A DNA stretch of 58,887 nucleotides from Treponema sp. (GTDB taxonomy: Bacteria > Spirochaetota > Spirochaetia > Treponematales > Treponemataceae), in NCBI GenBank assembly GCA_045534325.1, contig JAZSJM010000037.1, positions 1 through 58,887 on the forward strand. Direction: 5' to 3'. The notes below the pieces were generated by a model. That model was not told the origin of the DNA and searched no databases. It saw nothing but the letters and a program-made list of their open reading frames with translations. A program made the position numbers and the translations under genes. Shown one piece after another: positions 30,270-34,380 of the stretch; the stretch's first letter is position 1; each line of letters starts with the position of its first letter.

Positions 30270-30292
30270 AATTTGATAATAATTCTCAAATT
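30270..30292. promoter_or_regulatory. Fur-family operator 1
   Basis: AATTTGATAAT-A-ATTCTCAAATT palindrome with a 7-1-7 TGATAATnATTCTCA core, just upstream of TTGACG (-35). Confidence 0.8.
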
Positions 30293-30319: not shown

Positions 30320-30342
30320 AATTTGAAAATCGTTATCAAATT
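30320..30342. promoter_or_regulatory. Fur-family operator 2
   Basis: AATTTGAAAAT-C-GTTATCAAATT, exactly 50 bp after operator 1 and overlapping the putative -10 (TAATTT). Confidence 0.75.
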
Positions 30343-30352
30343 GGAATAATAA

Positions 30353-30784
30353 ATGCAAAAATCACCCTACAAAACAAGACAGCAGGAATTACTCTTCTCT
30401 TATTTACAGCAGGTAAAGGGTCAACATTTTACCGTAGATGATGTATGCAGTTATTTTAAAAATAAAAATATTGCAATCGGAACGGCAACAATCTACCGCC
30501 AGCTGGAAAAATTTGTTGCAGAAGGAAAAATTCATAAATATTTTATCGATGAACACTCGGCTGCATGTTTTGAGTATTCTGGAGAAGATTGTTCTAAAGC
30601 AGACTCGCATTTTCACCTTAAATGTGAAGTTTGCGGTAAACTTATGCATCTTGAATGTGAAGAACTGGAAGAACTTGGAAGTCATCTAAAAAACGAGCAT
30701 GGTTTTAATATCAATCCTCTTAGAACTGTTTTTTATGGTGTCTGCAATGATTGTAAGAAAAGGGGGGATAAACTAGATGACTAA
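30353..30784 (+). CDS. Fur-family metalloregulator (probably Zur-like by context)
   Basis: HFT.DD, IG.ATIYRQL, HFHLKCEVCG, YGVCNDC. Confidence 0.9.
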   Translation: MQKSPYKTRQQELLFSYLQQVKGQHFTVDDVCSYFKNKNIAIGTATIYRQLEKFVAEGKIHKYFIDEHSAACFEYSGEDCSKADSHFHLKCEVCGKLMHLECEELEELGSHLKNEHGFNINPLRTVFYGVCNDCKKRGDKLDD

Positions 30785-31076
30785 AAATTCCCTTAAGTTT
30801 TTTTCTAAAACAGTTGCAATTCTGCTCACAGTTTTTTTATTTTTTGCTGTATTTTTTGAGATTAATCATGCAGGACACGAGGAAGAATGTCATGAAGACG
30901 GATGTCTTGTGTGCATGGTGCTGAATATAATTCATAACATAAATAAAAATCTTCTTACCGTTTTTGCTGCATCGGAGAAAGTTTTTTATCAATCTGTTAT
31001 TTTGTCCTTTGGTTTTTCTGCCTTATTATTTAGACCTTGTACCCTGGTAAGCCGAAAAATCAAACTTACAATTTAA
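30777..31076 (+). CDS. Small membrane/exported His-Cys protein, candidate regulatory leader
   Basis: N-terminal hydrophobic helix, HAGHEEECHEDGCLVC, C-terminal TLVSRKIKLTI; AGGGGGA RBS; overlaps the fur stop. Confidence 0.7.
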   Translation: MTKNSLKFFSKTVAILLTVFLFFAVFFEINHAGHEEECHEDGCLVCMVLNIIHNINKNLLTVFAASEKVFYQSVILSFGFSALLFRPCTLVSRKIKLTI

Positions 31077-31150
31077 AATTTCTCTCAACTTACGATTTAC
31101 GATAAAAAGTAGCCCAGATTTTCGGCTACTAAGAAGAGGAAATTTTAAAT
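31071..31150 (+). promoter_or_regulatory. Stem sequestering the RBS/start of the COG0523 gene
   Basis: ATTTAAAATTTC-TCT (31071-31085) pairs with AGA-G-GAAATTTTAAAT (31135-31150); inner AGTAGCC/GGCTACT hairpin. Confidence 0.7.
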
Positions 31151-32297
31151 GAAAACGAAGAATAAAAAACCTGTAGTTTTAATTACAGGATATCTTGGTT
31201 CGGGTAAAACTACTTTATTAAATAATCTATTAAAACAAGAAACCCGTCGCGTTGCCCTGATTGTAAATGATATGGGAAGCATTAATGTAGACGCTGAGAT
31301 ATTAAAAAAAGACGGAGCAAATGTTGCAGAATGTCCGATGTTTGAGCTACAGAATGGCTGTATCTGCTGTACCCTCCGCGATGAATTTATTCAGCAGATT
31401 GAAAAAATTTCTGCAATTGACAGTGTAGAGGTTGTCTTTGTAGAAGCTTCGGGTATTTCTGACCCGGGTGCTGTTTCTGCCAGTTTTTTAGCTTATGAAG
31501 AAGATAATCCTGACACAAATGTTTATCTAACATCTGTCGTTACAGTTGTTGATGCAGACAGAATTTATCGGGAATTTTTAAGTGATTTAAAAAAGAAAAA
31601 TAAAGAAAAAGATTCCCTTGATGAAAACAATTTAACTTCAGAAGAAATTTCTACCTTAATCGTAGACCAGATTGAATTCTGCAATTTTATTGTTTTAAAC
31701 AAGTGTGATTTACTAGAAGACAGTCAACTCAAAGAGGTAGAGGCTATTGTTCGCGAATTCCAGACAAAAGCTCCGATTTACCGCAGTGTGAACGGTTCAA
31801 TCGAGTTATCTAAAATTACGACAAAAGAACCTTTTAATTTTGAGCAGATTGATTCTTCTTCCGCAATTCAAAAAGCAATCAACAGCTTAAATCAAAAATC
31901 AAACGGCTGCACAGATGAATACGGAATTTCCTCTTTTGTTTATGAAGAAAGACGTCCATTCAATCGTAAAAAATTTGCAGATTTTGTGAACAATCGCTAC
32001 CCGAAAGAGTTAATCCGGGCAAAAGGGTATATATGGTTTTCTGATAGCGATGCAGATGTTCAGCTTTTTGAGCAGGCGGGGCGTAATTCTTCAGTAATGG
32101 AAGTTTCTTACTGGATAGATGCTTTAGTTGAAGAACAGAAGCAGGCTTATATTGCAGATAATCCTGATATTAAAGATAACTGGGATGAACAGTTTGGTGA
32201 CAGAGAAAATCAGATTGTCTTTATTGGTAAAGGATATAATCAGCAGGAAATTATAGCTGAATTAGAAAAATGCCTGGATGAAAAGGCAATAGCGTAA
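31149..32297 (+). CDS. COG0523/CobW-family G3E GTPase zinc metallochaperone
   Basis: TGYLGSGKTT, IVNDMG, NGCICC, VEASG, LNKCD, IRAKG, WD..FGDR.NQIVFIG. Confidence 0.93.
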   Translation: MKTKNKKPVVLITGYLGSGKTTLLNNLLKQETRRVALIVNDMGSINVDAEILKKDGANVAECPMFELQNGCICCTLRDEFIQQIEKISAIDSVEVVFVEASGISDPGAVSASFLAYEEDNPDTNVYLTSVVTVVDADRIYREFLSDLKKKNKEKDSLDENNLTSEEISTLIVDQIEFCNFIVLNKCDLLEDSQLKEVEAIVREFQTKAPIYRSVNGSIELSKITTKEPFNFEQIDSSSAIQKAINSLNQKSNGCTDEYGISSFVYEERRPFNRKKFADFVNNRYPKELIRAKGYIWFSDSDADVQLFEQAGRNSSVMEVSYWIDALVEEQKQAYIADNPDIKDNWDEQFGDRENQIVFIGKGYNQQEIIAELEKCLDEKAIA

Positions 32298-32320: not shown

Positions 32321-33337
32321 ATGAAAATAAATAAAATAATCGCAGTAGTTGGAGTAGTATTTACATTAGGCATGTTCAGTGCATGTAATGAAAAAAAAGT
32401 AAACTCAAATAAAAACTTAAAAGTTGTTACTACGATTTTCCCAGAATATGACTGGGCACGACAGATTATCGGTGAAAAGGCTGATGATGTGGAGCTTACT
32501 CTGCTCTTGGACAACGGTGTGGATTTGCACTCTTACCAGCCCAGCGTAAAGGACATCGCAAAAATTCAGAACTCAGATATTTTTATTTATGTCGGTGGCG
32601 AAAGCGATGAATGGGTTGAAGATGTTTTAGAAAATTCAACAAATAAAGCACAAAAGGCTATAAATCTTCTTGAAGTCCTGGGCGACCGGGTTAAGGCTGA
32701 GGAAATTGTTGAGGGAATGGAGCATGAACACCATCACGGGCATGGACATCATGAACACGAGGGAGAGCATCACGACGAACATAGCCACGGCCATGAGGAA
32801 GAACTTGATGAGCATGTCTGGCTTTCCCTCAAAAACGCCCAGAATCTCACAGTTGCAATTGCAGATGCTCTCTGTCAGGCTGATTCAAAAAATGCAGTAA
32901 TCTATAAGAATAATCTTGCTGCTTACAATAAAAAACTGGCCGATTTGGACGCAAAATATGAAGCTGTCGTAAAGGACGGAAGCAAAAATACCCTTCTTTT
33001 TGGAGACCGCTTTCCATTCCGTTACCTTGTTGAAGATTATGGTTTAAAGTACTTTGCGGCTTTTAGTGGTTGTTCCGCAGAAAGCGAAGCAAGTTTTGAA
33101 ACAGTTGCATTTCTTTCTAAAAAAGTAGATGAACTGGCCTTGGAAAACGTATGCAAAATCGAAGGCGGAAGCGATAAACTTGCAAAAACAATTATTTCAA
33201 ACACAAATAATAAAAACGCAAATGTTCTTGTACTCGATTCTTTACAGTCAACAACTTCTAAGCAGATAAAAAATGGCGCCACATATCTTGGTGCAATGGA
33301 AGAAAACCTTAAAGTATTAAAAGAAGCGCTAAAATAA
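32321..33337 (+). CDS. znuA: ZnuA/AdcA-type metal ABC substrate-binding lipoprotein
   Basis: Lipobox FSAC, DLHSYQP, His-rich loop HEHHHGHGHHEHEGEHHDEHSHGH, DEHVWLS. Confidence 0.88.
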   Translation: MKINKIIAVVGVVFTLGMFSACNEKKVNSNKNLKVVTTIFPEYDWARQIIGEKADDVELTLLLDNGVDLHSYQPSVKDIAKIQNSDIFIYVGGESDEWVEDVLENSTNKAQKAINLLEVLGDRVKAEEIVEGMEHEHHHGHGHHEHEGEHHDEHSHGHEEELDEHVWLSLKNAQNLTVAIADALCQADSKNAVIYKNNLAAYNKKLADLDAKYEAVVKDGSKNTLLFGDRFPFRYLVEDYGLKYFAAFSGCSAESEASFETVAFLSKKVDELALENVCKIEGGSDKLAKTIISNTNNKNANVLVLDSLQSTTSKQIKNGATYLGAMEENLKVLKEALK

Positions 33338-33339
33338 AC

Positions 33340-33422
33340 GCAAAAGGGATTGTAGCGGCGGCGAAGCCGTTTTGCAGTTATGGTGGTTGAGTTTTGTCGA
33401 AACCTTCATAGCTGCACAAATG
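33340..33422 (+). repeat. Truncated structured repeat copy E5 (5' part only)
   Basis: AGGGATTGTAGCGGCGGCGAAGCCGTT...AAATG parallels E8, but the closing TAACC.CG.AAAGCCC arm is absent. Confidence 0.7.
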
Positions 33423-33450: not shown

Positions 33451-34380
33451 TTAATTAAATTTTCCGTAATTTTCCGCTGCCTGCTCAACAGTCATGTTCC
33501 CGGTCATAACCTGCTGAACGGCGGTGCGCATCTGGGCAATTGCACTGTCAATAAGTCCCAGCTCTCCAAGATATATTGGGGTAGACTTACTCAGTTGGGC
33601 ATAAACTTCGTCAAAGGAATAATCTTTTGATACTGTAATAAGACGCTTGATTTTTGCAAGATTGTTGAGTTCCTCTGTTCTTACAAGAAAACGCATGAAT
33701 TCATCCGCCATATCAAGATTTTTAGACTTCTTGTTCACGGAAAATCCTACAGAAACATTGTTTACAAAACAACTGTTTTGATCCGTGGCTGGAAAAATGC
33801 GGAAGCTGTATTTAAAAGGATTATTTATAAAAGCCTGTGACTGAGCTTCCCTTTTTAAGGTTCCTGAAACTATGTCTGTATCACAGAGCATTATTGGAAT
33901 GTTTCCTTCAAAAAAAGTCATGATTACTTCATTGTATTTATCTTTAAGGGTACGGCACTGGTCAAGGTCAATAAGTCCCTCTTCCATAAAGCTTTTTGCC
34001 CATTCCAGCGCTGGCTTTAAGTATTGTCCGGCCTCAGGGGTAAGCTGATTGAGCATTGGAACAGCTTCAGAATTATTCTGAATGGATTTACAGAAATAAG
34101 AATAAATCAGAGGAAGCCCCATAAAATTGTCTGCATAAACCATAATGGGACTTTTGTAACCGGCGGCTTTCAGTTTGTTGCAGGCTGTAACAAGAGCTGA
34201 GTATGTTTGAGGAAGCTCAATTCCTTCTTTTTTGAAAATATCTTCGTTTACCATCATTCCGTAGGAGCCGGAAAGAACTGGAACCATGGGAGTTCTGCCA
34301 TCTGCCGTGTGCTCAATAAGCTCACTTCTGATTGTGGAAAGATTAAAGCCCAGGGCTTTTTCATCAGATAAATTATAATA
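33451..34380 (-). pseudogene. C-terminal fragment of a sugar ABC substrate-binding protein
   Basis: GMMVNEDIFKKEGIELPQTYSALV, GFSVNKKSKN..A.EFMRFL; the frame runs upstream of ATG 34287 to a stop near 34410 with no signal peptide or lipobox. Confidence 0.7.

Follow-up and report, generated by a model that had tools for sequence, protein, structure and literature searches.

Between a Fur-family regulator gene and a gene for a COG0523 (CobW-family) GTPase, the 58,887-nucleotide contig JAZSJM010000037.1 of a Treponema species (GenBank assembly GCA_045534325.1; hereafter the window) carries an open reading frame (ORF) of 99 residues at 30777-31076 on the plus strand. Does this ORF encode a protein with a job of its own, or is it a leader whose translation governs the gene behind it? 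A preliminary description, made from the sequence alone, proposed a zinc-sensing leader that arrests the ribosome without the RAPP motif of DUF2946-type leaders, and whose stop-codon region pairs with the ribosome-binding site (RBS) of the GTPase gene. Here we describe a widespread, unnamed leader family for which comparative sequence evidence argues strongly for a ribosome-gated switch with an unfamiliar candidate arrest motif. The arrest-leader interpretation gains computational support from a motif fixed to the stop codon, a nearly fixed distance from the CxxC motif to the stop, predicted pairing between the stop-codon region and the RBS, and the absence of RAPP. Arrest leaders are laid out in this way, with a motif anchored at the stop, a linker that keeps its length like a ruler and, inside the ribosome footprint, an anti-Shine-Dalgarno sequence, and in our judgement these are very probably arrest leaders of some kind. 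Our preferred reading, to which we assign a probability of roughly 0.6, is that the leader stalls ribosomes at termination without RAPP, keeps uptake genes on and is released by zinc.

An unnamed leader family in three phyla

The family has neither a name nor a Pfam match and occurs in Spirochaetota, Bacillota and Synergistota. Searching 1.84 billion representatives with the window's leader alone returned 25 proteins, syntenic leader copies were recovered from 81 related genomes, and the profiles A2 and A3 describe the same family by hhalign. For the window's genus, the profiles found matches in 126 of 301 genomes, and for its phylum in 19 of 201, the latter including 13 of 29 genomes of one genus in another family. 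Three more samples were each drawn around one genome: the family of a Butyrivibrio genome (the lachnospiraceal sample) gave 34 matches in 251 genomes, the order containing an Oscillospiraceae genome 15 in 251, and the phylum containing a Synergistaceae genome 12 in 101, two of these twelve being weak false hits. In an even draw of Bacillota the first profile matched 5 of 401 genomes, so the distribution is patchy. A protein database search yielded 483 proteins. Close homologues that have a name are few and are hypothetical proteins of Treponema, and members in named strains come from Treponema saccharophilum JCM 32279 (WP_002703376.1), Subdoligranulum variabile and Butyrivibrio sp. INlla14. 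The leader matched no Pfam or NCBIfam family above its cut-off and no PDB sequence. The nearest entries in the ESM Atlas were 30 unnamed clusters; clusters bearing DUF2946 appeared at 0.86-0.88, which we take as a lead only. A protein of 1559 residues with 27 stretches matching the leader's His/Cys segment (P0003) was set aside as a likely unrelated repeat protein.

The counts below refer to 186 distinct loci for which a next gene is present, of which 109 come mostly from the window's own genus, 56 from Bacillota (13 shared) and 34 forming a weak-scoring tail, which was included to avoid choosing only good cases. They include a part of the profile matches in the genus (126) and lachnospiraceal (34) samples. 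We dropped L074 (wrong start), six loci with no next gene within 330 nt or at a contig end (L016, L018, L020, L149, L172 and L209), two running off a contig (L192 and L193), one with an N gap (L196), one with a deletion (L197) and two weak false hits (L198 and L248). L140, whose N-terminus is cut, was dropped only from the count of helix, linker and spacing, and two loci with mis-picked starts (L227 and L242) and a false hit (L249) were kept in the counts. The deletion in L197 (G296:C16, about 32333-32605) is about 186 nt long and is flanked by a 9-nt repeat present in two copies; it removes the C-terminal half of the leader, the stop codon and the 5' intergenic arm, and leaves the znuA ribosome-binding site. 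Either the switch may have been lost naturally here or the assembly may be wrong.

A peptide motif held at a fixed distance from the stop codon

The ORF translation agreed with the preliminary description in its length, in the His/CxxC segment HAGHEEECHEDGCLVC and in the C-terminus TLVSRKIKLTI. That the last dozen or so residues might be conserved at a fixed distance from the stop codon was borne out across the family: the tail follows the 11-residue consensus [TS][LP][VI]xxK[IVT][KR][LMI]xx, with the final residue directly 5' of the stop. Thr/Ser occupies position -11 in 175 of the 186 leaders, Leu/Pro -10 in 177, Val/Ile -9 in 173, Lys -6 in 178, Ile/Val/Thr -5 in 180, Lys/Arg -4 in 180 and Leu/Met/Ile -3 in 174; the final two residues are looser. 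The motif recurs in 58 Bacillota leaders. Of 28 held-out loci, 27 have it, the exception being a false hit, and so do 118 of the 120 best-scoring among the 483 database proteins. Two database proteins, P0026 and P0023 (125 aa), extend beyond the usual stop position and may represent stop-loss or frameshift variants.

We considered whether an RNA motif might be posing as a peptide motif. Leaders with the same residue at a motif position use different codons in 40-79% of pairs, a synonymous variation that points to selection on the peptide. Together with the weaker conservation in shifted frames (the Lys-derived position excepted), this ruled the RNA explanation out. All three stop codons occur among the leaders. 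The tail is thus conserved as a peptide, at a fixed distance from the stop. The RAPP-less character of the leader also proved to be a family trait: RAPP-like ends were found in none of the 109 leaders, none of the 56 from Bacillota and none of the best 120 database proteins, and no member has a RAPP tail behind an intact front. PP occurs in the tail of none of the 109 and one of the 56.

The linker from CxxC to the C-terminal end measures 53-57 residues in 181 of 185 leaders (sd 1.35), and its sequence is unconstrained (entropy about 3-3.9 bits). The distance from the N-terminal helix to the stop is likewise narrow (sd 2.4). The linker and the tail bear on a simpler explanation, which we regard as unlikely: that any terminating ribosome melts the stem in ordinary translational coupling, that the product is a small membrane metal-binding protein, and that the tail has some other job, for example as a protease signal or a partner-binding strand. 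Under this explanation it is hard to see why the linker should keep its length although its sequence and hydrophobic pattern vary. Moreover, conservation runs from -11 to -3 and fades at the last two residues, unlike the contrasting pattern of a terminal recognition tag.

The stop-codon region is predicted to pair with the next gene's ribosome-binding site

The 12-bp perfect stem proposed for the window is present as an inverted repeat (31071-31082 with 31139-31150) that starts in the last codon and stop, and the 3' arm of the extended stem covers the GAGGA RBS, the spacer and the first two letters of the start codon at 31149. A 3-bp extension after a bulge is also present, although its minimum-energy register (31084-31086 with 31136-31138) differs slightly from the one first described (31083-31085 with 31135-31137), which inspection shows to be feasible as well. 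The fold contains the inner 7-bp hairpin; the idea that the whole intergenic region folds closed did not survive, since 31092-31107 are unpaired. Folding of 31040-31175 gave -23.6 kcal/mol (z = -2.96), a value that 2 of 200 shuffles equalled or bettered. The predicted cost of opening the RBS is 7.6 kcal/mol for the free RNA and 2.1 kcal/mol with a ribosome over the stop codon. Loop sequence and length vary widely among relatives, and Rfam returned a single chance-level match (E 0.8). The window also holds a 13-nt direct repeat (92%; 31063-31075 and 31087-31099) that spans the leader end and the intergenic loop and was not seen as a common trait of relatives.

Across the family, start codons were picked by Shine-Dalgarno strength, independently of the stem. 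The 24 nt around the stop codon pair with the locus's own RBS at a predicted -9.45 kcal/mol, compared with -6.06 for the RBS of other loci and -4.65 for 212 control junctions from the window's genome (G000). The native mean was reached by none of 10,000 permutations in each of four sets (the 109 leaders, Bacillota, the weak tail and the 28 held-out loci); when the held-out loci were permuted within subsets, 44 and 1 of 10,000 reached it. Because kin are not independent, we also swapped arms between sister leaves of the leader tree. Native arms were better in 28 cases and swapped arms in 14, with three ties (45 usable of 50 pairs; one-sided p = 0.022). Chance complementarity between AT-rich segments is ruled out by the own-genome controls, arm shuffles and cross-locus permutations. 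Thus, the stem is real as a positional rule without a fixed register, with about a third of the loci weak or mis-modelled.

The pairing probability is highest at +2 to +8 past the stop codon and falls to background by +11/+12, in the own-genus and Bacillota sets alike. With the stop codon in the A site, the 3' edge of the ribosome lies at about +11. Placing a ribosome over the stop is predicted to cut the opening cost by at least 2 kcal/mol for 75 of the 109 leaders compared with 19 of the 212 controls, and likewise for 44 of the 56 Bacillota leaders and 20 of the 28 held-out loci.

An N-terminal helix and a candidate metal site

All 185 members with a whole N-terminus have a hydrophobic helix (hydropathy at least 1.6) with an excess of Lys/Arg on its N-terminal side. 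A scan for the cleavable Sec signal pattern found small residues at -3/-1 ahead of the conserved His in 45 of 173 members. Downstream of the helix, CxxC is present at all 186 loci, within the pattern H..C..CxxC in 173 and H..H..CxxC in 12. Several loci of genus g49 (L257-L269) have a His-rich run in place of the first Cys and keep CxxC and the tail; the spacing in this group is 56-59, and stem opening is predicted for 11 of 13.

In 76 of the 109 leaders and 51 of the 56 from Bacillota, the linker contains a second hydrophobic stretch (19-residue hydropathy at least 1.6). The AlphaFold model shows two helices and a loose tail with a pTM of 0.36 and adds little; a Foldseek search with this low-pTM model found no solved fold. 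A second stretch and two modelled helices would suit a two-helix membrane protein, and in this respect they speak for ordinary coupling.

Genes behind and ahead of the leader

The next gene encodes a COG0523 or ZnuA protein in 169 of the 186 loci: 105 belong to the ZnuA family (21 with a ZinT domain) and 64 to COG0523 by the P-loop motif, so that the directly controlled gene is znuA itself in many loci. The other 17 comprise six ABC ATPases, three family-5 binding proteins, two TonB receptors, two CbiK, two DUF1980 proteins, one alkaline phosphatase and one dCache protein. The family matches of the cargo include none for copper, and no sec or yidC gene follows the leader at any of the 186 loci. 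The leader stands directly before its cargo and is repeated 5' of each cargo copy in genomes with two or three, an arrangement that ordinary coupling of a free-standing membrane protein does not readily explain. Nor does the leader overlap or abut the next gene as coupled genes might: none of the 186 intact leaders lies within 35 nt of it, compared with 390 of 691 co-oriented control junctions in the window's genome, a control that takes first ATGs and so leans short.

Some cargo swaps stand out individually: CbiK at L096 and L223, a TonB-dependent receptor at L216 and L224, a family-5 binding protein at L007, L043 and L087, a 540-aa ABC binding protein at L237:2968-4968, and DUF1980 at L181 and L186. 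These swaps point to other genes of metal starvation, among them possible importers of metallophores in Treponema. In a Synergistaceae record (L064, 2992-4951), the leader precedes the alkaline phosphatase gene, and the same genome has a second leader before znuA. L064 is possibly a reversed switch.

Upstream, a Fur-like gene lies directly before the leader in 63 of 95 scored non-Bacillota loci compared with 5 of 56 in Bacillota. A Fur-type palindrome accompanies 34 of the 63 loci with such a gene and none of 63 coding controls. Among Bacillota, 6 of 56 leaders have a Fur-type box, and neither two consensus motifs nor a de novo palindrome count revealed a shared repressor box 5' of these leaders.

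A proposed switch and its alternatives

In the mechanism we favour, the N-terminal helix would engage the translocon and place the His/Cys site outside. With residue 99 in the P site, some 30-35 residues would lie in the exit tunnel and about 20 across the membrane, and from these spans we infer that CxxC sits at the outer mouth of the translocon. When metal is absent, the motif would block termination, the ribosome would shield about 10 nt beyond the stop codon and COG0523 or ZnuA would be translated. Binding of metal, likely zinc, would fold the site and pull on the chain; termination would then be completed, the stem would close and translation would drop. The adjacent repressor would sense cytoplasmic metal and the leader outside metal, and in many Bacillota the leader is possibly the main zinc control of the importer. 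Because the cargo consists of uptake genes, it makes sense for metal to turn translation off. By analogy with characterized leaders, the ribosome likely stalls at the stop codon or beside it and is released by metal. To the more specific proposition that these leaders are a proline-free arrest class in three phyla, blocking termination at their own stop codon and sensing outside zinc at the translocon mouth, we give even odds.

Several points weigh against this reading. Most of the loci are kin. The tail motif is unlike the known arrest sequences compared, and the search profiles include it, which biases them towards motif-bearing matches. We therefore inspected the partial matches: two run off a contig end, one has an N gap and one a deletion, and the other three are a weak false hit, a leader whose diverged tail retains Lys-6 and a leader with a degenerate tail. 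On the RNA side, the opening gain of at least 2 kcal/mol is found at 122 of all 186 loci and at only 12 of the 34 in the weakest-scoring tail. The minimum-energy fold joins the GGA core to the stop arm in 76 of 185 loci; the flanking positions of these 76 show all four Watson-Crick pair types, in a census that favours pairing by construction. RNAalifold gave no consensus structure on 32 aligned junctions, because the arms slide in register. Of the suggestion that the stop-to-RBS stem would recur in homologues, pairing with each locus's own RBS at a fixed position held up, and a column-by-column consensus did not. The footprint geometry suits ordinary termination equally well, and both this arm position and the weakness of the stem in about a third of the loci are compatible with plain coupling. 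Finally, the ZnuA family also binds manganese and iron, the cargo includes CbiK, TonB receptors and alkaline phosphatase, and the outside-sensing precedent, CutF, works in the opposite direction.

The last point raises the possibility of opposite sign, in which outside metal prolongs the stall and turns translation on, so that leader and repressor form an AND gate that calls for little metal inside and available metal outside. The predicted outward orientation of the His/Cys site matches that of CutF, in which the stem opens as copper lengthens the stall, and one leader precedes alkaline phosphatase, a zinc-using enzyme. The nature of the cargo, COG0523 or ZnuA in 169 of 186 cases, makes such a sign improbable, as does the paucity of adjacent Fur-like genes and Fur-type boxes in Bacillota, where the leader may therefore act alone (a different box could be missed). 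At the phosphatase locus itself, a ribosome at the stop changes the opening cost by -0.3 kcal/mol, that is, no effect is predicted.

We also weighed whether an arrest leader of this design answers to something other than zinc, such as cobalt, manganese, iron, copper, CxxC redox state or the secretion capacity to which SecM, MifM and CliM respond. The CbiK, TonB receptor and family-5 cargos (two, two and three loci) would suit another metal, the Fur-family regulator is not assigned as Zur, the experimentally tested CxxC leaders in the literature compared all sense copper, and the helix-to-stop distance is narrow as well. Zinc is nevertheless the likely signal, favoured by best matches to ZigA and AdcA, both below cut-off, and by the 21 ZinT fusions. 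Cys-to-His swaps at the first ligand fit a metal site and not a disulfide, and sec and yidC are absent from the cargo. A non-zinc signal therefore seems quite unlikely to us.

Relation to known leader and arrest systems

The leaders considered here are not filed under DUF2946, because two defining features fail: the Pfam match and the RAPP/PP tail. PF11162 (DUF2946) matched neither the window's leader, 24 members of alignment A1, the window's genome nor the best 120 of the 483 database proteins, none of which carries any Pfam domain, and for 33 A3 members it is absent from the 25 families listed of 34. No DUF2946 member over the cut-off was found in 251 Bacillota genomes. The two groups may share a distant ancestor. 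The predicted N-in/C-out export signal, CxxC and a conserved CxxC-to-tail spacing are present in the new family as in DUF2946-type leaders. DUF2946-type leaders, however, precede copper-handling genes, whereas the new family precedes COG0523 or ZnuA genes.

Two characterized leaders are closest in design. CruR (Bp2923) of Bordetella pertussis is a DUF2946/PF11162 leader that depends on CxxC and on the stretch behind it, in which 52 residues separate CxxC from the C-terminus (PMC9426467), and it arrests at RAPP in vitro (PMC12992588). It shares with the new family the export signal, CxxC, the fixed spacing to the tail, a long gap to a metal-uptake gene and the proposed direction, in which metal relieves arrest. 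The output of CruR is Rho-dependent termination, in contrast to the predicted RBS-hiding stem, and CruR-type leaders have RAPP and PF11162 and are mostly proteobacterial, whereas the new family lacks both, has its motif at the stop and precedes zinc-type cargo. CutF of Rhodobacter capsulatus is a Cys-bearing leader that is exported, and a stem in the intergenic RNA masks the Shine-Dalgarno sequence of the gene behind it (PMC9973294; bioRxiv 10.1101/2025.02.05.636593); CutF too senses outside the membrane. Unlike the new leaders, CutF has a proline-rich tail and responds to copper, and metal prolongs its stall so that detoxification is induced. The survey of CutF-like leaders demanded PP within the last 15 residues (same sources); a later leader survey filtered on RAPP/RGPP and an arrest-peptide screen on sec/yidC neighbours. 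Each would therefore miss the new family.

Stop-dependent arrest by short proline-free tails has been shown for DGMK-stop and Clostridioides difficile CliM. Arrest peptides of this kind resemble the new leaders in their N-terminal membrane signal and in residues fixed to the stop; CliM, DGMK and LudP also have proline-free motifs, and CliM has a downstream RBS-hiding stem. The NSP-stop, NAP-stop, DGMK-stop and CliM systems differ in consensus and in their downstream gene, sec or yidC. In an engineered fusion of the ADR1a zinc finger to SecM (PMC4571824), zinc-driven folding of a small His/Cys domain releases the arrest peptide; that construct is artificial and folds in the tunnel at 24-26 residues, whereas in the new family 53-57 residues separate the site from the end, which is predicted to place it past the membrane. 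We found no description of the leader family in the full-text literature, a search that left most subscription journals uncovered; Table S1 of the CruR paper and File S1 of the CutF paper could hold members.

The operon in the Treponema window

The operon runs from the Fur-family gene through the leader and the COG0523 GTPase to the ZnuA-family lipoprotein (Table 1), and the 3' end of the Fur-family gene shares 8 nt with the leader ORF. The window's genome (85% complete) has this single Fur-family match; every NCBIfam score for it was under its cut-off, and it is therefore not assigned to a subfamily such as Zur. The COG0523 protein best matches ZigA in NCBIfam (301.5 bits, below the cut-off of 600), and the ZnuA-family protein best matches AdcA, also below cut-off. 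Palindromes were scored against a Fur-type consensus. The site at 30274-30288 is the only one listed in this genome at 13/14, and scores of 12/14 are frequent there by chance. The promoter scan found fewer sites than in shuffled sequence.

Table 1. Features of the leader locus, in window coordinates
Feature	Position	Strand	Basis
Fur-type palindrome, likely repressor site, 5' of operon	30274..30288	.	13/14 vs consensus
Second, weaker Fur-type palindrome	30324..30338	.	12/14; overlaps promoter-like -35 hexamer
Fur-family regulator gene	30353..30784	+	Pfam FUR E 6.5e-17
Leader ORF (P0001), 99 aa	30777..31076	+	ORF call; own family
N-terminal hydrophobic helix, ~residues 9-29, predicted N-in/C-out	30801..30863	+	Hydropathy, charge bias, AlphaFold helix 3-31
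Candidate metal site His34, Cys38, Cys43, Cys46	30876..30914	+	(Near-)invariant in alignments A1, A2, A3
Candidate arrest sequence TLVSRKIKLTI + stop	31041..31076	+	Family-wide tail conservation
5' arm: last codon, stop codon, anti-Shine-Dalgarno	31071..31086	+	Inverted repeat + fold
Inner 7-bp hairpin, not a conserved part	31108..31130	+	Fold; arms 31108-31114 / 31124-31130
3' arm: GAGGA (31136-31140), spacer, COG0523 start codon	31136..31151	+	Inverted repeat + fold
COG0523 (CobW-family) GTPase, predicted directly controlled gene	31149..32297	+	Pfam cobW + CobW_C
ZnuA-family solute-binding lipoprotein, His-rich loop	32321..33337	+	Pfam ZnuA E 2.5e-69

Two further ZnuA-family genes and the one ABC-3 permease found in this genome lie on other contigs (G000:C289:3-803, C185:35084-35917 and C285:5213-5992), and a profile search of the genome found no second leader. 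Convergent with znuA is a gene for an SBP_bac_1 solute-binding protein (33451-34287, minus strand), and a terminator-like hairpin lies on the minus strand at 33326-33341.

Implications

The CruR paper notes that no zinc or copper riboswitch had been described (PMC9426467). The metal-sensing leader peptides tested so far, in the literature that we compared, respond to copper only and have only proline-containing tails. If our reading is true, the family adds zinc, a new ribosome-arrest sequence and a mechanism that acts at the stop codon, and it explains a hypothetical gene that 126 of the 301 genomes of the genus carry, as do 34 of the 251 in the lachnospiraceal sample. With four candidate ligands, a ruler of 53-57 residues and a motif of 11, it allows a sharp test of how a ligand outside the membrane signals to the ribosome. 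Uptake genes in three phyla of mostly anaerobic bacteria would then be under the control of a peptide-based zinc switch.

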